Assembly: GCA_031291955.1 (NCBI GenBank)
Contig: JARLIA010000005.1
Location: 209,057-273,056, forward strand
Source: Minisyncoccota bacterium
Lineage (GTDB): Bacteria > Patescibacteriota > Minisyncoccia > Moranbacterales > UBA2206
Direction: 5' to 3'
Length of the DNA: 64,000 nt
In this document: in pieces, positions 737 through 42,144 of the stretch
Layout of the letters: each line of letters begins with the position of its first letter
Position numbering within the stretch: position 1 is the first letter of the stretch
Notes under the pieces: model-generated
Databases searched by the model: none
Told to the model about the DNA's origin: nothing
What the model saw: the letters and a program-made list of their open reading frames with translations, nothing else
Translations under genes and position numbers: made by a program

Positions 737-775
737 ATTACGCAATTAGTTACGTAATTTTTATTTTTGTGCCTT
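737..775 (+). terminator. rho-independent terminator-like hairpin after the permease gene
   Basis: aaaattacg...cgtaatttt inverted repeat followed by tatttttg. Confidence 0.4.
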
Positions 776-1136
776 AGGAGAGACTCGAACTCTCAAGGGA
801 TTGCTCCCACGCGATTTTGCCGCGCCCGCTTCGCCTTGCGTTCTTTTGTTTTATCTGTGCCCAAGGTGGGACTCGAACCCACACGGTCTTGCGACCACAC
901 GATTTTGAGTCGTGCGCGTAAACCAATTCCGCCACTTGGGCTTGTGTGTAATAAAGAACTAACAAGAAAAATTACGGGCGAAGCAAGGCGGGCGGGAGTC
1001 GCGCGCGTATACCCCGCCTGCCTTGCAATGCTACTCGCGAATTAGTACTTCTTCGGTTAATTTCATTGTAGCAGTAAAATGTCGCTTTCTAATTTTATAG
1101 CAAGGCATTGCGGGCAGGCAATTCCGCCACTAAGGC
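770..1136 (-). other. split tRNA-like gene: 5' half (acceptor+D-arm, ~1100-1136) and 3' half (variable arm+T-arm+acceptor, 770-~845) separated by ~290 nt that contain the tRNA-Leu above
   Basis: 5' piece GCCTTAGTGGCGGAATTGCCTGCCCGC (D-stem GCGG/CCGC), 3' piece GGGAGCAATCCC-GAGAGTTCGAGTCTCTC-CTAAGGCA; acceptor strands GCCTTAG/CTAAGGC are perfectly complementary. Confidence 0.3.
858..941 (-). tRNA. tRNA-Leu(CAA)
   Basis: Minus-strand cloverleaf by eye: acceptor GCCCAAG/CTTGGGC, D-arm GCGGAATTGG, anticodon loop CUCAAAA (CAA), long variable arm, T-loop GGGTTCGAGTCCCAC. Confidence 0.8.
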
Positions 1137-1188
1137 TTGTTTTGAGTTTGTTAGATTTTATAGTACAATATATCTATACTTATTGATT

Positions 1189-1980
1189 ATGGCAAAAATA
1201 ATTTCACTCGTCAACCAAAAGGGCGGCGTGGGCAAGACTACTTCGGCCATCAACCTGGCGACTTACTTGGCGGCGGCCGGAAAGTTCGTTTTGTTAGTGG
1301 ATCTTGATCCGCAGGGAAATGCTTCCTCGGGGCTGGGTTTGGATGTTCGAAACATTGAAAAAAGCCTCTATCACGCCATGATTGGTGGAGAACATCCGGG
1401 AAATGTCATTATGCGGACCGAAACATTCGGCCATGATCTCATTCCAGCTTCGCAAGACTTGGCCGGGGCAGGCATTGAGCTGGTGCATTTGGATAACCGG
1501 GAATTTCGGCTGTATAATGTCCTCCGAGAAATTCGGACCAACTATGATTACATCATCATCGATTCGCCGCCGAGCCTCGGACTTTTGACGATCAATGGTC
1601 TCGTGGCCAGCGACGAGATCCTTATTCCAGTGCAAACCGAATATTTCGCCTTGGAAGGCTTGAGCCAACTCTTGAACACAATCGATTTGGTGCGGGAAAA
1701 CCTCCAGCCGGAATTGAAAATTATGGGGGCGGTTCTCACAATGTATGACAAGCGGAACCGCTTGGCCCGCCAAGTGGTGAAAGAAATGCATGATCATTTT
1801 CCGGGCCACGTTTTTGATTCGGTCATTCCGCGCTCGGTGCGTCTCGCCGAAGCGCCGGGCTTTGGCAAATCAATCCTCAGTTTCGACGGCCTGTCCAAAG
1901 GGGCGCGGGCCTACAAAAATCTGGCAAGGGAGATTATTGAACTGGAAAAACAGGATAATAAAAAAGGATTTAGCGTTTAA
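1189..1980 (+). CDS. parA: chromosome partitioning ATPase ParA/Soj
   Basis: MAKIISLVNQKGGVGKTT deviant Walker A; ORF-track start at 1108 is less likely than the ATG at 1189. Confidence 0.9.
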   Translation: MAKIISLVNQKGGVGKTTSAINLATYLAAAGKFVLLVDLDPQGNASSGLGLDVRNIEKSLYHAMIGGEHPGNVIMRTETFGHDLIPASQDLAGAGIELVHLDNREFRLYNVLREIRTNYDYIIIDSPPSLGLLTINGLVASDEILIPVQTEYFALEGLSQLLNTIDLVRENLQPELKIMGAVLTMYDKRNRLARQVVKEMHDHFPGHVFDSVIPRSVRLAEAPGFGKSILSFDGLSKGARAYKNLAREIIELEKQDNKKGFSV

Positions 1981-6403: not shown

Positions 6404-8647
6404 TTATTTCTCAAACTTACATTCCTTATTTGAACATTTGACTTTTCCTTTGGCGGCAAAAGTCAGGAGACTGCCACACTCTGGGCATTTTTCTCCGGTC
6501 GGCTTGGTCCAGAGGGCAAATTTGCAATTGGGGTAGTTGTTGCAGCCGTAAAAGACCCGACCCCGCTTGGATTTTCGTTCGACAATTTCTCCGACGCCGC
6601 ACGTGGGGCATTTGACGCCGGTCTTGGTTTCGATTTTTTTGATGTTTTTGCAATTGGGATAATTGGAGCAACCGAGAAACATGCCGTATTTTCCGCGTTT
6701 GATCACCATTGGGGCGCCGCAGAGTTCGCACTTTTCCGTGCCGGTCTCTTTTTCGATTTTTTCCTGCAGTTCTTTTTCCGCGGCCGTTTTTTCAGTATAG
6801 CGGCACTCCGGATAGTTGGAGCAAGCGATGAATTTTCCAAACCGCCCGAATTTGACGATCAGGTCACCGCCGCAATCGGGACACTGGCGATCCAGTTTTT
6901 CCTGGTAGTCTTCCTTCTTGACTGTCTTGGCTTTGCTTTCGATATTTTTGTGAAAAGGTTTGTAGAATTCGGCAATGACTGGCACCCAATCTTTCTTGCC
7001 TTCGGCGATTTTGTCAAAGTCTTCTTCGATGCCGGCCGTAAAGCCAGTGTCGACGATGTCAGGAAAGTGTTCAACTAGAATGTCATTTACCAGCAGGCCG
7101 ATTTCCAAAGGGATTAGCCGCTTCTCATCGTTACGCTCGACATATTTCCGGTCAATGATAGTGGAAATTGTCGGGGCGTAGGTGGATGGCCGTCCGATCC
7201 CGTTTTCTTCCAGGACTTTCACGAGACTGGCTTCGGAATAGCGAGGCGGAGGCGTTGTTGATTTTTCTTCTTTGTCAATTTTCGCGATTTCCAGCTCGTC
7301 AGTTTTCTCTATCGGCGGCAAAAGGTTTTCGGCCGTTTTTTTGCCGGAAAAAACTCTAAGGAAACCGTCGAATTTGATGGTTGAGCCGCTGGCGCGGAGG
7401 AGATAAACATTTTTATTCTTCGCGCTGTCGGCTTTAGCTTCCATTTTTACGGAATTGAAAACCGCCGGCGCCATCTGGGTGGCGATCATCCGTTCCCAGA
7501 TGAGTTTGTAGAGCCGGGCTTGCTCGGGCGGCAATTTGCCCTTCAATTCTTCTGGGGTCGTTTCGGGATTGGCCGGCCGGATGGCTTCGTGAGCTTCTTG
7601 CGCGCCCTTGGATCTGGTCTTGAAAAAGCGGGGACTCTCCAACGCGTAGTTTGCCCCAAATTTTTTCTTGATGACTTTTTGGGCGGAAATCATCGACTCG
7701 AGCGAAAGATTGACCGAGTCGGTCCGCATGTAGGTGATGTGGCCGCCTTCATAAAGCTTTTGGGCGGCAATCATCGTTTTCTTGGCCGAATAGCCCAAGG
7801 TGTTGATGGCGGCTTGCTGGAGCGTGGAGGTGGTGAAGGGAGGGCTTGGATGACGCTGTGTTTCTTTCTGTGCCACGTCGGTCACTTCAATGCGGGAATT
7901 TTTGAGGTCGGCAATAATTTCATTGGCCGAATTTTCATCGGTGATGATGGTCTTTTTGGTTTTGTAGTCTCCGGCAAAAAGTTTCAGCGTTACGACCTGC
8001 TCGATTTTATCGCCGTTTTTTTCAATCAGGTCGGTCGCGAAAGTTTCGTCCGCGCCGATTTTCTTGAGTTCCAAGGGAACGGTCCAATAATTTTCGCTTT
8101 TGAATTTTTCTATTTCTCGTTCGCGTTCGGAGATGAGGCGGAGTGCCACAGACTGGACGCGCCCGGCCGAAAGCCCGCGCCGGACTTTTTTCCACAAGAA
8201 AGGCGACAGTTCATATCCGACCAAACGGTCGAGCACCCGCCGGGCCTGCTGGGCATCCACCAGATTAAGATCGATTTCTCGGGGACTGCCCAAAGCTTTC
8301 TCGATAGCCGATTTGGTAATTTCATGAAAAACGATGCGGGGAGTATTGCCCTTAAGATCCAGCGCGGAAACCAGGTGCCACGAAATCGCTTCTCCCTCGC
8401 GGTCTTCGTCAGTCGCGAGAATCACTTCGTCAGCTTTTTTAGCCAGTTTTTTGAGTTCGCCGACTCGGTCGATGGCTTCCTTGGGGATGACGTATTCGGG
8501 CGTGAAATTATGTTCGATATCGATACCCATATCCTTTTTGGGGAGATCGCGGATGTGGCCATAGGAAGACTTTACGGTAAAAGACTTTCCCAGGAATTTG
8601 GAAATGGTCTTGGCTTTGGTGGGGGATTCGACGATAACTAGTTTCAT
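6404..8647 (-). CDS. topA: DNA topoisomerase I with C-terminal Zn-ribbon repeats
   Basis: MKLVIVESPTKAKTISKFLG Toprim start; Cys4 repeats in the C-terminus; ATG at 8647 preferred over the TTG at 8662. Confidence 0.9.
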   Translation of the reverse strand: MKLVIVESPTKAKTISKFLGKSFTVKSSYGHIRDLPKKDMGIDIEHNFTPEYVIPKEAIDRVGELKKLAKKADEVILATDEDREGEAISWHLVSALDLKGNTPRIVFHEITKSAIEKALGSPREIDLNLVDAQQARRVLDRLVGYELSPFLWKKVRRGLSAGRVQSVALRLISEREREIEKFKSENYWTVPLELKKIGADETFATDLIEKNGDKIEQVVTLKLFAGDYKTKKTIITDENSANEIIADLKNSRIEVTDVAQKETQRHPSPPFTTSTLQQAAINTLGYSAKKTMIAAQKLYEGGHITYMRTDSVNLSLESMISAQKVIKKKFGANYALESPRFFKTRSKGAQEAHEAIRPANPETTPEELKGKLPPEQARLYKLIWERMIATQMAPAVFNSVKMEAKADSAKNKNVYLLRASGSTIKFDGFLRVFSGKKTAENLLPPIEKTDELEIAKIDKEEKSTTPPPRYSEASLVKVLEENGIGRPSTYAPTISTIIDRKYVERNDEKRLIPLEIGLLVNDILVEHFPDIVDTGFTAGIEEDFDKIAEGKKDWVPVIAEFYKPFHKNIESKAKTVKKEDYQEKLDRQCPDCGGDLIVKFGRFGKFIACSNYPECRYTEKTAAEKELQEKIEKETGTEKCELCGAPMVIKRGKYGMFLGCSNYPNCKNIKKIETKTGVKCPTCGVGEIVERKSKRGRVFYGCNNYPNCKFALWTKPTGEKCPECGSLLTFAAKGKVKCSNKECKFEK

Positions 8648-18721: not shown

Positions 18722-19183
18722 ATGAAATTGATTCTCGAATTAAACGACCGCGTCGGAAGCGGAATCAAAAGATCTTTTATTTCTAAAATAATAAAAGAAA
18801 CTTTGGCGCGGGCGGGAAAAGAAAGTTTAGAAAAGAAAAACATAACGATCAGCATGGCGGTTATTTCCGAGGATGAAATCCGGGAACTTAATCGGACTTA
18901 TCGAAAAAAAAACAAGCCGACCGATGTTTTGTCGTTTGCCGAACATGAAAACCGCCGGGAGTTGGAAGAGGCGCTGGCGGGGATCGAGGATGTCTTTCTT
19001 GGCGAGTTGGTTTTGTGCTATAATGACATGGTGAAATATTGCGCCCAAAACAAAGTGGCTATTCAAGAAGAAACAGCGCGAGTTATTTCCCACGGCACGC
19101 TCCATCTTTTGGGTTTTTCCCATGGCAAAAAAATGTTTGAGATTCAAGATGAAGTCGCAATAAATAACAATATAAAAATTTGA
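18722..19183 (+). CDS. ybeY: rRNA maturation RNase YbeY
   Basis: HGTLHLLGFSHG metal-binding motif; ATG at 18722. Confidence 0.8.
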   Translation: MKLILELNDRVGSGIKRSFISKIIKETLARAGKESLEKKNITISMAVISEDEIRELNRTYRKKNKPTDVLSFAEHENRRELEEALAGIEDVFLGELVLCYNDMVKYCAQNKVAIQEETARVISHGTLHLLGFSHGKKMFEIQDEVAINNNIKI

Positions 19184-23054: not shown

Positions 23055-23213
23055 TTTCTAATTTTCAATTTCTAATTTCTAAACAATTTCCAATGCTTCA
23101 ATGACTAAATTTTCAAACGTTTAATAACTTGAAAAATTATTGAATTGTTTGTCTTGCTATGCGAGATCTGGCGCAGCCAGAAAAATTGAAAATTGAAAAT
23201 TGAAAATTTAGTT
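23055..23213 (+). repeat. upstream element copy 2 (heptad arms + conserved core), directly ahead of the nrdD start
   Basis: >90% identical to the 8650-8807 (reverse complement) and 25912-26069 cores; ends …gaaaattgaaaattgaaaatttagttgactATG. Confidence 0.6.
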
Positions 23214-23217
23214 GACT

Positions 23218-25455
23218 ATGGGAGGTGAAAACAAAAAGGGGAAAAACAAAAAGCTTGCCCGCAACGCTACGCGTAGCGTTGCAGGCGGGGGGGTCAAGGT
23301 CGAAAAAGGAAAAACGAAAAAAGAGCCGGAAAACAGGGTGACTAAAGTTGTGAAAAGAAGCGGGCAAGTAGTGGCTTTTGATCCGGGGAAAATAGCCAAG
23401 GCGGTCAAGAAGGCTTTTTTGGAAACCAAGGAAGGAACGGCCGAAGACGCCAAACAGGTGGCAGAGAAAGTGGCTAAGCTTCTCAATAAGAATTACAAAA
23501 AAGGCTACATTCCGGAAATCGAAGAGCTCCAGGATATGGTGGAACGGGTACTCATGATTTTAGATTTCGACCAGACGGCCAAAGCTTACATCCTCTATCG
23601 CGAACAGCACCGGAAGATCCGCGAGACGGAAGAATCACTGAAAGAAGCGGTTGATTTGGTGGACAAGTATATTCAGGAGATCGACTGGAAAGTGAAAGAG
23701 AACGCCAACATGGCCTATTCACTCCAGGGACTCAACAACTATGTTTCTTCGATTGTTACTTCCAAATATTGGATGAACCGGGTTTACACCAAAGACATCC
23801 GCGAAGCCCACGAGGGCGGAGATTTTCACATTCATGATCTTCAGCTTTTGGCGGCTTATTGCTGCGGCTGGGACCTGCAGGATCTCTTGCGGCGGGGGTT
23901 TACCGGTGTATCTGGCAAAGTGGCCTGCAAACCGGCCAAACATTTGGGCTCGATTCTCGGCCAGATGGTGAACTTCACCTACACTACCCAGGGTGAAGTA
24001 GCTGGTGCCCAGGCTTTTTCCAACTTTGATACGCTCCTGGCGCCGTTCGTTCGAAGCGACAAATTGACTTATGAGGAAGTGAAGCAGCAGATCCAGTCTT
24101 ATGTCTTCAATATGAATGTGTCTACCCGGGTCGGTTTCCAGACGCCTTTTTCCAACATCACGATGGATATTACTTGTCCCAAAAATTTGAAAGATGAAGC
24201 GGTGATTGTTGGCGGCGTGCCGCAAAAAGAAAAATACGGCGAGTTTCAGGAGGAAATGAATATGATCAATCGAGCCTTTGCCGAAGTGATGACGGAAGGC
24301 GACGCCAATGGCCGGATCTTCACTTTTCCCATTCCGACCTACAACATCGGCAAGGATTTCGATTGGGGCGACAAAAAATTTGATCCGATCTGGGAAATGA
24401 CGGCCAAATATGGCATCCCGTATTTTGCCAACTTCATCAATTCAGACATGGATCCGGACGACGCCCGCTCAATGTGCTGCCGGTTGCGGTTGGACAATCG
24501 CGAACTTCACAAGCGCGGCGGCGGACTGTTTGGCGCTAATCCTTTGACTGGATCGGTCGGCGTGGTGACGATCAATCTGCCGCGCATTGGATATTTCTCA
24601 AAAAATAAAAAAGAGTTCTATCAAAAACTGGATCGCCTGATGGATATTGCCAAAAACAGCCTGGAAACGAAAAGGAAGATGGTTGAAGGATTGACCGAGA
24701 ACGGTCTGTATCCTTATACGAAATTTTATCTGGCTCCCATCAAAATGCGCCGCGGGGAATACTGGGCCAACCATTTTTCTACCATCGGACTCATCGGCAT
24801 GAACGAGGCCTTGCTCAACCTGACCGGGAAAGACATTGCTTCGAAAGCGGGGCAAAAGTTGGCCGAAGAAATTTTGGTCCACATGCGCGATCGGATCATT
24901 GGCTACCAGAAAGAAACCGGCAATCTCTATAACCTGGAAGCGACGCCGGGCGAAGGCACATCCCATCGCTTGGCCGGAATCGACCGCAAGAAATATCCCG
25001 AGATGGTCTTTGCCAACGACAAAGCAGTGAGAAACCAAGATGCGACCCCGTATTATACCAATTCCTCACAACTCCCGGTCTCCTTAACGGAAGATATTTT
25101 CAGTGCTTTGGATCTTCAAGACAATCTTCAGACCAAATATACCGGCGGCACAGTCCTGCATGGATTTTTAGGTGAACGGCTTTGGGACATCGAGACAACC
25201 AAAAAACTGGTCCGGAAAATTGCCGAAAATTACGCCCTGCCGTATTTCACGCTCACTCCGACCTTTTCCATCTGTCCGGTGCACGGCTATATTTCCGGCG
25301 AACACACTACGTGTCCCAAGTGCGTCATCGAACAGAAGTGCGAAGTTTATTCGCGAGTGGTTGGCTACATTCGCCCAGTTGAGCAATGGAACGGCGCCAA
25401 ACAGGCGGAATTTTCCGATCGAAAAGAGTTTGTAGTGACGGGTAAGAAAAAGTAA
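23218..25455 (+). CDS. nrdD: anaerobic ribonucleoside-triphosphate reductase (class III RNR) with ATP-cone and C-terminal glycyl-radical/Zn-ribbon
   Basis: ATP-cone (VTKVVKRSGQVVAFDPGKIAKAVKKAF), C-terminal CPVHGY…CPKC… and RVVGYIRP glycyl-radical motif; start ambiguous (ATG 23218 with a K-rich leader, or in-frame GTG 23338). Confidence 0.9.
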   Translation: MGGENKKGKNKKLARNATRSVAGGGVKVEKGKTKKEPENRVTKVVKRSGQVVAFDPGKIAKAVKKAFLETKEGTAEDAKQVAEKVAKLLNKNYKKGYIPEIEELQDMVERVLMILDFDQTAKAYILYREQHRKIRETEESLKEAVDLVDKYIQEIDWKVKENANMAYSLQGLNNYVSSIVTSKYWMNRVYTKDIREAHEGGDFHIHDLQLLAAYCCGWDLQDLLRRGFTGVSGKVACKPAKHLGSILGQMVNFTYTTQGEVAGAQAFSNFDTLLAPFVRSDKLTYEEVKQQIQSYVFNMNVSTRVGFQTPFSNITMDITCPKNLKDEAVIVGGVPQKEKYGEFQEEMNMINRAFAEVMTEGDANGRIFTFPIPTYNIGKDFDWGDKKFDPIWEMTAKYGIPYFANFINSDMDPDDARSMCCRLRLDNRELHKRGGGLFGANPLTGSVGVVTINLPRIGYFSKNKKEFYQKLDRLMDIAKNSLETKRKMVEGLTENGLYPYTKFYLAPIKMRRGEYWANHFSTIGLIGMNEALLNLTGKDIASKAGQKLAEEILVHMRDRIIGYQKETGNLYNLEATPGEGTSHRLAGIDRKKYPEMVFANDKAVRNQDATPYYTNSSQLPVSLTEDIFSALDLQDNLQTKYTGGTVLHGFLGERLWDIETTKKLVRKIAENYALPYFTLTPTFSICPVHGYISGEHTTCPKCVIEQKCEVYSRVVGYIRPVEQWNGAKQAEFSDRKEFVVTGKKK

Positions 25456-25542
25456 AAAGTAATTATTTTCAATACGAAGTAATTATTAAGTAAATCGAGC
25501 GCAATGAGCGGATCCCCATTGCGTTTCGAAAAAAACAAAATT

Positions 25543-25803
25543 ATGGAAAAGACAATTTGCCATGATTGCGGGCGGGAATTGGCGCATAACGATGAATTTA
25601 TGCCGTACGAGGCGGCCGGACAGAAATTTGCCAAGTGTCGGGCTTGCCACGAGATTGATCCGGTGCTCCGAGATTTTCAGGAAACGGAGGTTTATTCCCG
25701 GGTGGTTGGCTATATCCGTCCGGTCAAGCAATGGAACGGCGCCAAGCAAACGGAATTTTCCGACCGGAAAGAATTTGTTCTCGCAGACAACGGGTGCTGT
25801 TAA
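25543..25803 (+). CDS. small Zn-ribbon + glycyl-radical-motif protein duplicating the NrdD C-terminus
   Basis: CHDCGRE…CRACHEID… then EVYSRVVGYIRPVKQWNGAKQTEFSDRKEF, ~90% aa identity to the NrdD tail with synonymous DNA divergence. Confidence 0.5.
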   Translation: MEKTICHDCGRELAHNDEFMPYEAAGQKFAKCRACHEIDPVLRDFQETEVYSRVVGYIRPVKQWNGAKQTEFSDRKEFVLADNGCC

Positions 25804-39927: not shown

Positions 39928-40215
39928 TCAGATCGCCCTTATTTCAATTCCCAGTTTTTCTTTTATGATCTGCTTCATCTGTTTGAATTCCTCTTTCATA
40001 ATAACAAAATCCTGCTTAAAATCTTCTTGCGCCTTGACATAACCATCAATCAGCGCTTGAACTCTGTTGACGTCAGTCTTTAAATCATCTAATCGATTGT
40101 TTACTTCTCCCAGGCGTTTTGTCAAAATCGAGTCCATAGCATCAAGAATGATCTGCGTTTGTTCCTCAAGGTCTTTCCTGGTTACGTATTCATTTTTATT
40201 GGTTTCTTTATTCAT
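39928..40215 (-). CDS. hypothetical coiled-coil protein
   Basis: 95-aa charged ORF; terminator-less tail-to-tail with the previous gene. Confidence 0.35.
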   Translation of the reverse strand: MNKETNKNEYVTRKDLEEQTQIILDAMDSILTKRLGEVNNRLDDLKTDVNRVQALIDGYVKAQEDFKQDFVIMKEEFKQMKQIIKEKLGIEIRAI

Positions 40216-40386: not shown

Positions 40387-42144
40387 TCATTCTTCCACCA
40401 CTTTCCCACCCATAATCTCCAGCGCTGAATCAAGAAGGGATTCTTGTTCGCCGGGTTTTTCTTCGGCGGCGGCTGATTTTTGGGGTTGGATGGTCTTGTC
40501 GACCGCCACATTGAGAATCAGGCGGCATCCTAAAATCTTACCCAAAACTTCCTCAACTGTCAATTTATTCTTTGGGTCGCGGAGACGCTCGGCGTAAAAT
40601 TCATACGGCGTGGCGAGTGTTACTTTTCCATCTTGGGCATTCACCGGCTGGCAGTTGGAAAGGAGTGCCGAGAGGGAATGGTTGTGGGGGCGGATGTCGG
40701 TCAGCAGTTGCGACCAGTTGCTTTTCACGGTATATAAATCTATTTTGGAATTATTATTGTCTTCGGATGGCAGGGGATCGGTATGCTGTTCTATTATGAC
40801 AGGGTTATCATTATCGGAAATCCCTTCAGGAGTGCTTCGGTTCAGGTCAGGAGACGCCGAACCGACAGAAGGACTTTCTGTGGAAGCTTTGCTGGGAACA
40901 TATGATTCGGGCGATACGCCCGAACCTGCGTTCGCGGTATTCGCGTTATGCGTTATGCGTTGCGTGTTGTGCGAGGCTTCCGGAAATTTTTGCGTCGCTT
41001 TGATAATCGCGATCTCCAGCGGCAGCTGCGGCAGAATAAAAGAAGCGATTTTGTTTTGGGCTTCAAGCAGGAGATTAATAGTGGCGATAATTTTTCCGAG
41101 ATCCGCCTTTTCGGCCAATTCAACTATATCTTTCATTTGTTCTTCCGGCATCTCGTAGGTGAAATATCTTTTCAGTTCGGAACTGATTTTTATCAGCATC
41201 AGCTGGCGGAGATAGTTGATGAGTGATTTATTGAACACTTGCAAATCATAGCCGGATTCCAAGAGTTCGTTGATTTTGGCGATGGCGCCAGTAGAATCAT
41301 TTTCCGTTATCATCCGGGCTACGGCGGCCGCGGTCTTGCGGTCAGTCGTCCCCAGAATTTCTTCCGTGTCTTTAACAGTGATGTTTTTATCTTCCAGAGA
41401 AATGATCTGTCCCAGGAGCGACTCGGCGTCGCGCATCCCGCCTTCAGCCGCGATGGCGATGAGTTCCAAGGCTTCCGATTCAATTTTCACTTTCTCGGCG
41501 TCGGCGATCAGCTTTAGCTTTTTGACAATGTCGGTCATTGGCAATCTCGTGAAATCAAACCGCTGACAGCGAGAGAGGATGGTTTCGGGCACTTTGTGAA
41601 TTTCGGTGGTGGCCAGGATAAAAACAACGTGGGCTGGCGGCTCTTCCAACGTTTTCAAAAGCGCGTTGAAAGCGCCGGTTGAAAGCATGTGCACTTCGTC
41701 GATGATGTAGACTTTATATTTCAAAGACGCCGGAGCAAGCGCTACGGTTTCTCTGAGTTCCCGAATGTTATCCACGCCCGTGTTGGATGCGGCGTCGATC
41801 TCGATGATGTCAAGCGATTTTCCGGAGGCGATGATTTCGCAGGCCGAACATTTCTCGCATGGCAAAGCGTCCCCGCCTGCAACGCTATGCCCGCCAGCAT
41901 CGCTACGCGAAGCGTTTCGGTCTGGCGTAGCATTGCGGGCAGGTTTGATGTTTTCACAATTTATCGTCTTGGCTAGGATTCTGGCGATTGATGTCTTACC
42001 GGTGCCGCGCGGTCCAGTGAAAAGATAGGCGTGGCCAACATGGTCGTTTTTGACGGCATTGGTGAGCGTCCGGATGACGTGAGTCTGGCCGATGACTTCA
42101 GCGAAATTCTTGGGACGATATTTTCGATAGAGTGTGTTTGCCAT
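40387..42144 (-). CDS. dnaX: DNA polymerase III subunit gamma/tau
   Basis: MANTLYRKYRPKNFAEVIGQ…GPRGTGKTS Walker A, Cys4 Zn module (CEKCSACE). Confidence 0.9.
   Translation of the reverse strand: MANTLYRKYRPKNFAEVIGQTHVIRTLTNAVKNDHVGHAYLFTGPRGTGKTSIARILAKTINCENIKPARNATPDRNASRSDAGGHSVAGGDALPCEKCSACEIIASGKSLDIIEIDAASNTGVDNIRELRETVALAPASLKYKVYIIDEVHMLSTGAFNALLKTLEEPPAHVVFILATTEIHKVPETILSRCQRFDFTRLPMTDIVKKLKLIADAEKVKIESEALELIAIAAEGGMRDAESLLGQIISLEDKNITVKDTEEILGTTDRKTAAAVARMITENDSTGAIAKINELLESGYDLQVFNKSLINYLRQLMLIKISSELKRYFTYEMPEEQMKDIVELAEKADLGKIIATINLLLEAQNKIASFILPQLPLEIAIIKATQKFPEASHNTQRITHNANTANAGSGVSPESYVPSKASTESPSVGSASPDLNRSTPEGISDNDNPVIIEQHTDPLPSEDNNNSKIDLYTVKSNWSQLLTDIRPHNHSLSALLSNCQPVNAQDGKVTLATPYEFYAERLRDPKNKLTVEEVLGKILGCRLILNVAVDKTIQPQKSAAAEEKPGEQESLLDSALEIMGGKVVEE

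Follow-up and report, generated by a model that had tools for sequence, protein, structure and literature searches.

We suggest that the resident tRNA-Leu(CAA) gene of a Minisyncoccota bacterium has recently been cut by two copies of a mobile-element family resembling the Rickettsia palindromic elements (RPEs), one of which carried a second, complete tRNA-Leu(CAA) as a replacement, and we regard this as the probable history of the locus. The anatomy is plain: within the window, by which we mean the whole 64,000-nucleotide stretch of DNA that was analysed, the outer tRNA gene lies in three pieces, and relative to the gene of a close relative it has been interrupted with precision by two inserts. 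We refer to the pieces as E1, E2 and E3 and to the inserts as IVS1 and IVS2, the latter of which encloses the inner tRNA gene.

The interrupted tRNA gene and its uninterrupted relatives

The features of the locus, all on the minus strand, are as follows.

1167-1195, minus strand: promoter-like site upstream of E1, TTGCCA-17-TATATT, a consensus match only
1119-1136, minus strand: outer tRNA piece E1, GCCTTAGTGGCGGAATTG, with the acceptor 5' strand, U8/G9, the D-stem 5' strand and the start of the D-loop
1013-1118, minus strand: IVS1, the D-loop insert, a palindromic element of 106 nt (5'-CCTGCCCGCAATGCCTTGC ... GCATTGCAAGGCAGGCGGG-3') that is AT-rich inside
997-1012, minus strand: outer tRNA piece E2, GTATACGCGCGCGACT, with the remainder of the D-loop, the D-stem 3' strand, the anticodon-stem 5' strand and C32/U33
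820-996, minus strand: IVS2, a 177-nt element that separates U33 from C34 in the anticodon loop, the junction being ambiguous by one C
996-975, 974-942, 941-858, 857-841 and 840-820, minus strand: within IVS2, the 5' arm, a 33-nt flank, the cargo tRNA, a 17-nt flank and the 3' arm
858-941, minus strand: the inner tRNA-Leu(CAA), complete (ARAGORN; Rfam 61.3 bits)
770-819, minus strand: outer tRNA piece E3, with the anticodon CAA, the anticodon-stem 3' strand, the variable arm, the T-arm, the acceptor 3' strand and A73

Joined, the three outer pieces make 84 nt, for which ARAGORN gives a perfect tRNA-Leu(CAA) cloverleaf. This joined tRNA and the inner one (GCCCAAGTGG...CTTGGGCA) are equal in length and differ at 16 positions, mostly in stems and largely as compensatory pairs. 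On the 5' side, likeness to the inner tRNA ends at GAATTG (1119), E3 begins at CAAAATCG (819), and a repeat finder independently recovered E1, E2 and E3 as direct-repeat matches to the inner tRNA, whose flanks likewise resemble, as direct repeats, those of the resident gene. A purpose-written scan for split tRNAs, which looked for a T-arm and 3' acceptor strand together with, at a distance, a matching 5' acceptor strand and its adjoining U8, gave three matches across the 64-kb window, namely two ordinary tRNAs and the outer gene, and hence the arrangement is not one of chance. The locus is also not an artefact of a single assembly, since an identical spacer of 456 nt recurs with no mismatches in four other contigs (three sequencing runs and the NCBI MAG GCA_031291895.1).

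An earlier note on this DNA had described an intact tRNA-Leu(CAA) nested between the two halves of another tRNA-like gene. The nested gene (941-858) is indeed intact, the two acceptor strands, GCCTTAG at 1136-1130 and CTAAGGC at 777-771, complement each other without a mismatch, as it had claimed, and the GC-rich palindrome to which it drew attention is real, at 983-1026, as is the complementarity to the 5' part, which the repeat finder recovered. The halves, however, are three pieces, the middle exon (1012-997) sitting in the loop of that very palindrome, and they were drawn too wide: tRNA-like sequence is confined to 1136-1119 and 819-770, and the remainder consists of insert arms.

The genes neighbouring the locus encode a MacB/FtsX permease, ParA, ParB, RelA/SpoT, TopA and DprA; all are bacterial, and their homologues are labelled Pacebacteria, Moranbacteria or Patescibacteria, which makes the host a CPR bacterium of Moranbacteria/Paceibacteria type. 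In the closest relative (L085, L091 and L092; permease 89% identical) a single uninterrupted tRNA-Leu(CAA), scoring 56.8 bits against Rfam, lies beside parA and is identical at 84 of 84 positions to E1, E2 and E3 combined. E1 corresponds to L085 5701-5684, E2 and E3 both match the same uninterrupted gene, and both inserts are missing from it. The spacer that holds the promoter-like site upstream of E1 is kept in the relative with 2 differences in 52 nt, and we consider the site a putative promoter. About ten other species-level relatives (L089, L097, L099/L102, L100, L101, L103, L104, L109, L113, L121, L005 and L007) as a rule likewise carry a single uninterrupted gene here, and an interruption of the IVS1/IVS2 type was absent from every other relative examined. 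A search of species genomes with ParA gave a best match of 63% and mostly non-CPR matches, and was uninformative about relatives because ParA is too conserved; a match to a split tRNA in L009 turned out to be an ordinary tRNA with a chance 7-mer.

The age of the insertions can be bounded from the same comparison. Compared with the L091 relative, the window species differs at 47% of four-fold degenerate sites (JC 0.745), and under neutrality since the split about 31 of the 84 nt of the outer exons would be expected to have changed. There are no substitutions at all, so that either the insertions are recent (covering less than some 10% of the branch) or selection still acts on the exons. The inner tRNA has a different provenance: its identity to the parA-linked tRNA-Leu(CAA) genes collected from the relatives does not exceed 81%, as against 92-100% within the clade for the outer gene, and on this ground we take it to be foreign. 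A 27-mer specific to it was not found in viral contigs or metagenome contigs, and a blastn comparison of the region with phage and plasmid records returned generic tRNA-Leu similarity only, with no match to the inserts.

A second nested arrangement was found in a single more distant relative.

L088, 7464-7954: nested layout beside parA in a more distant, 66% relative

Reading from parA, this locus opens with the 5' fragment of a tRNA in which G10 is followed by a GC hairpin of 47 nt, a diverged form of the element family described below (CCCCGCC...GGCGGGG). After it comes a decayed GIY-YIG nuclease gene at 7624-7886 (Pfam 35.3 bits, cut-off 22.6), followed by a complete tRNA-Leu(CAA) at 7623-7539, and the last part comprises GAGTTCG, a 39-nt GC-rich insert and ACTCTCTCCTCGGGCA, and represents what is left of the 3' side of an L089-type tRNA whose T-loop has been split. 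A 31-nt duplication runs from the upstream flank into the tRNA's 5' part. From its sequence, the L088 locus looks like a later, decayed stage of the same nested layout, and the loci would then form a series: intact in L085 and others, newly interrupted in the window and decayed in L088.

A dispersed family of palindromic elements

On sequence comparison both inserts belong to a dispersed mobile family, and the copies that lie in open reading frames are predicted to be translated along with them. IVS1 and IVS2 have the same orientation and share the termini CCYGCCCGC...GCRGGCGGG together with an inner arm pair, GCCTTGC/GCAAGGC. Their architecture is common too: 5-6 bp of outer helix are separated by a C/AA internal loop from an inner helix of 7-8 bp. 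IVS1 folds as a long hairpin and its first 14 nt are identical to those of two other copies, in the window's dnaX and in L127; the arms of IVS2 pair together and its termini, CCCGCCCGC...GCGGGCGCGG, match both the copy in L100 and the family motif. The remaining copies collected, whose ends likewise form an imperfect inverted repeat (a hairpin), are these.

Window 41872-41943, minus strand: dnaX copy, 72 nt or 24 codons, in frame, encoding PARNATPDRNASRSDAGGHSVAGG
Window 23254-23292, plus strand: nrdD copy, compact, about 39 nt, in the nrdR-nrdD spacer or an N-terminal extension of the nrdD ORF
L100 4375-4426: copy in frame in a radical-SAM gene
L113 3379-3483: copy in the parA-parB spacer
L127 233-304: copy in dnaX

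Terminal motifs occur 9 times in the window, where 1.15 would be expected, and 4 of these sites are true hairpin copies. Further motif sites, at 18808, 19572 and 25568 in the window and in L088, L006 and L028, are in no case a hairpin element, and two matches to the termini pattern in viral contigs were chance hits in the coding DNA of contigs of 65-67% GC. None of the copies collected, other than IVS2, was found to hold a tRNA in its loop.

Filled and empty sites can be set against each other at three places. The tRNA is filled in the window and empty in L085 and L091. The parA-parB spacer of L113-L120 holds a homologue of IVS1, 105 nt long and with a single compensatory change in its arms; in the window, the site opposite the L113 copy is exactly empty (CCACTGA|TTTGCACT). 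In dnaX, the window and P0140 are filled, and P0141 (86%) and P0215 (81%), the closest homologues of the window's DnaX, are empty. No target-site duplication longer than 1 nt was found at IVS1, IVS2, the L113 copy or the dnaX copy, which likens the family to those that make none and not to MITEs of the Tc1/IS630 type.

Residues 66-90 of the window's DnaX have no counterpart in solved DnaX chains, and the DnaX of P0140/L127 carries a 72-nt copy with the same termini and a different interior. In L100 the copy is 67% GC in a gene of 38% GC and the ORF reads through it; a clean insertion was ruled out in this case, as the orthologues have unrelated linkers of similar length. The ORF-internal copies thus keep the frame (dnaX in the window and in L127, the radical-SAM gene in L100), for which the support is moderate, there being three cases only. 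We would argue from them that the elements stay in the RNA, since a frame need not be kept by a sequence that is removed from the RNA. For nrdD an out-of-frame interruption was ruled out, the 747-aa ORF aligning to the end of solved NrdD chains.

Several neighbouring observations may be recorded here. The linker of DnaX between the NC.. and PC..C..C motifs (alignment columns ~72-132, window residues 64-92) is a hot spot of insertion across CPR, with at least four different inserts (window/P0140; P0144/P0145; P0150; P0163) and none in most homologues; those of the other CPR lineages at the same spot are unrelated to the family copy. Just 3' of the complete nrdD (23212-25455) lies a separate gene, a 99-aa ORF at 25504-25803, whose match to the NRDD family (47.5 bits) is confined to the family's C-terminal end; it has no solved relative and may be a separate 'spare' piece of glycyl-radical type. 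The window also contains an IS110-family transposase at 10190-12530 in two ORFs, 10651-11325 (no Pfam match) and 11342-11947 (Transposase_20, 32.4 bits), bracketed by direct repeats of ~180 nt (~10190-10370 and ~12350-12530). It was discounted as mobiliser of the palindromic family, its flanks sharing nothing with the element termini. After its ORFs come four related hairpin units at 11980-12440 (...GGCGGACGAG..., ...GGCAGACGAA..., ...GACAGCGGACGAG...), which may be structured RNAs encoded by that element.

A probable insertion with a replacement, and the readings that compete with it

We posit that the resident gene beside parA would have been struck twice, at the DNA level, by GC-rich palindromic elements, and that IVS2 would have brought, in the loop of its hairpin, the complete foreign tRNA-Leu(CAA) with its own 33- and 17-nt flanks. 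The cargo-bearing copy probably came first, since only an insertion that brings a replacement would be harmless, and the second hit would then have been neutral. A transcript reading through from the old promoter, and perhaps also from within the inserts, would most likely be cut by RNase P and RNase Z to release the inner tRNA, which is probably the working gene and would supply the tRNA-Leu(CAA). The inserts would be retained in the outer precursor, where 106 nt in the D-loop and 177 nt in the anticodon loop should abolish function, and we infer that the outer gene is inactive, its three pieces being a very young pseudogene. Among the explanations offered by the earlier note, an insertion that carries a tRNA came closest to this; the insertions are two in number, and both are copies of the dispersed palindromic family. 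We note that IVS1 itself holds a promoter-like site (window 1092-1121, minus strand; an extended -10; TTGCCT, 18 nt, TGCTATAAAAT) from which, if it is active, E2, IVS2 and the inner tRNA could be transcribed.

It is also conceivable that the outer gene still works, the inserts being removed by a hairpin-recognising endonuclease and an RNA ligase or by self-cleavage, so that one transcript would yield two tRNA-Leu(CAA) species. The perfect preservation of the outer exons against some 31 neutral changes would suit this reading, as would junctions so precise that the joined product is a flawless tRNA, and the helix architecture common to IVS1 and IVS2 with its compensatory arm change between IVS1 and the L113 homologue. 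The predicted fold of the precursor is likewise accommodating: with the cloverleaf enforced it reaches -136.5 kcal/mol, as compared with -140.0 kcal/mol unconstrained, a cost of 3.5 kcal/mol, and each insert then becomes a hairpin that brings its exon ends together. Against these points stands the behaviour of the family as a whole, whose copies occur in intergenic DNA and, in frame and in multiples of three, in the dnaX of two species and a radical-SAM gene. The interruption is, moreover, absent from every other relative examined, and the nested layout of L088 is decayed. Nor do the junctions look like those of a known type of intron. No bulge-helix-bulge was found at them in constrained and local folds, the 5' junction of IVS1 lying within a continuous helix and the junctions of IVS2 facing a 5x4 internal loop, and no pairing is seen between the 5' end of either insert and the start of its 3' exon. 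Rfam searched over 700-1200 with E up to 10 returned no intron or ribozyme family, group I and group II included, and the tRNA alone at the gathering threshold (a match to mir-1976 is merely the GC hairpin). No splicing endonuclease or RtcB-type ligase was seen among the ten unassigned window ORFs scanned against Pfam. The large intron that had been envisaged earlier, and for which a group I model had been the proposed check, finds no support in these results or in the in-frame elements of dnaX, and we consider a spliced outer gene unlikely. Were it nevertheless true, it would amount to a new, non-group-I pathway of tRNA splicing in bacteria, whose carrier is a mobile element also found in protein genes and from whose 'intron' a second tRNA is freed.

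A route by way of a nuclease deserves consideration on account of L088. Here the inner tRNA would have arrived by 'intronless homing', in which an endonuclease cassette with a cleavage-resistant tRNA allele is copied into the cut gene, the nuclease gene is later lost and the palindromic arms are secondary. The decayed GIY-YIG gene of L088, between a tRNA 5' fragment and a complete tRNA, and the 31-nt duplication of upstream flank and tRNA 5' part agree with such a history, as do the flanks of the window's inner tRNA, which are like those of the resident gene. In the window, however, six-frame translation revealed no nuclease ORF or recognisable remnant in either insert, the inner tRNA and its flanks are exactly bracketed by arms of the palindromic family, and IVS1, which has neither tRNA nor nuclease, nonetheless has an intergenic homologue; we therefore judge homing quite improbable. 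Far more doubtful still is a chimeric assembly of two strains' tRNA genes or the scar of an integrase at an att site. The sequence is derived from a metagenome and tRNA genes are common sites of integration, but the 456-nt spacer recurs without mismatch in the four other contigs and no integrase adjoins the locus. The att duplication that had been proposed is contradicted by exon pieces that do not overlap and that sum exactly to the relative's gene, and a rearranged tRNA pair, also suggested before, fares no better, the relatives having one gene at the site and not two.

Insertion of a cargo-bearing element thus remains the reading that we prefer, and several consequences would follow from it. 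A disruption that arrives with its own replacement is a plausible route of horizontal tRNA replacement in small genomes with single-copy tRNAs. Standard tRNA finders see the inner gene only, and interrupted RNA genes of this kind in CPR bacteria would escape routine annotation. The family's inserts also add spurious-looking segments to essential proteins, DnaX among them.

Known systems and further observations at the parA-linked gene

The Rickettsia palindromic elements of R. felis number 728 copies, 85 of them within ORFs and 3 in RNA genes (PMC1166351). The present family is like them in consisting of small palindromic repeats found in ORFs, in spacers and in an RNA gene, with presence and absence between relatives here too. 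It differs in its host, which belongs to the Candidate Phyla Radiation, in its shorter copies (39-106 nt), GC-rich against their surroundings, and in that one copy has a complete tRNA gene in its loop; kinship of the sequences themselves is not to be expected. The RNA gene that was hit is, in addition, a tRNA, at D-loop and anticodon-loop positions intolerant of inserts. Judged by such features, the closest known kind is palindromic mobile DNA of the RPE type: the defining features that were tested are present, and the target duplications of MITEs are absent. For CPR bacteria, a literature search turned up neither elements of this sort nor nested tRNAs, and an RPE-like palindromic mobile family in this radiation appears to be undescribed. 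The CPR host, the tRNA cargo in the loop of an element and the insertion into a gene for the same tRNA all appear to be new in the searchable literature.

Other mobile sequences share part of this behaviour. The GC clusters and double-hairpin elements of fungal and algal mitochondria are mobile GC-rich hairpins in AT-richer genomes, which land in spacers and in rRNA and protein genes and nest within each other; they are organellar, whereas the present family is bacterial, and we know of none with a tRNA as cargo. Group I introns of bacteria interrupt the anticodon loops of tRNA genes, for example cyanobacterial tRNA-Leu(UAA), but the inserts described here match no such model and are too short, and one of them lies in the D-loop. 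Free-standing GIY-YIG homing endonucleases in tRNA clusters, such as SegB of phage T4, are mobile too, take tRNA genes as their targets and are passed on together with a tRNA allele; the window locus, in contrast, has no nuclease gene, and at this locus a GIY-YIG remnant is found in L088 only.

Archaeal multi-intron, split and tri-split tRNA genes offer a parallel of another sort, with several non-canonical interruptions, including ones in the D-loop and the anticodon loop, whose insert ends pair and so join the exons, and some of these introns behave as mobile elements (PMC4090602, PMC3978253, PMC10714607). As in those genes, removing IVS1 and IVS2 yields a canonical tRNA. Archaeal introns, however, depend on a bulge-helix-bulge and a splicing endonuclease, whereas here the motif is lacking, the host is bacterial and the elements occur in protein genes and spacers as well. 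A partial precedent may be seen in Lak megaphages, where a predicted tRNA lies inside the intervening sequence of another tRNA and presence and absence differ between variants (PMC6784885). That case concerns a phage genome and a single predicted intron, in tRNA-Thr, with no palindromic family described (PMC6784885).

The site itself shows some features of more general interest. The placing of tRNA-Leu(CAA) divergent from parA-parB is conserved across many genomes of Parcubacteria type (L005, L007 and L085-L126), and among the genes of this set the CCA end is encoded in L005 only. The spacer between parA and the tRNA holds an AT-rich palindromic insert of ~100 nt in L103 (~2255-2500; CCCGTACCAT...ATGGTACTGGG) that is absent from L104, and a different hairpin insert in L097 (~615-690). 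Related small ORFs of 92-95 aa (..EYVTR.DLEEQTQIIL.AMDS..) lie at 39928-40215 in the window and at 5293-5571 in L085; they adjoin a tRNA in each case, tRNA-Gln in the window and tRNA-Leu in L085/L091, and the ORF of L085 type is missing from the tRNA-Leu locus of the window.
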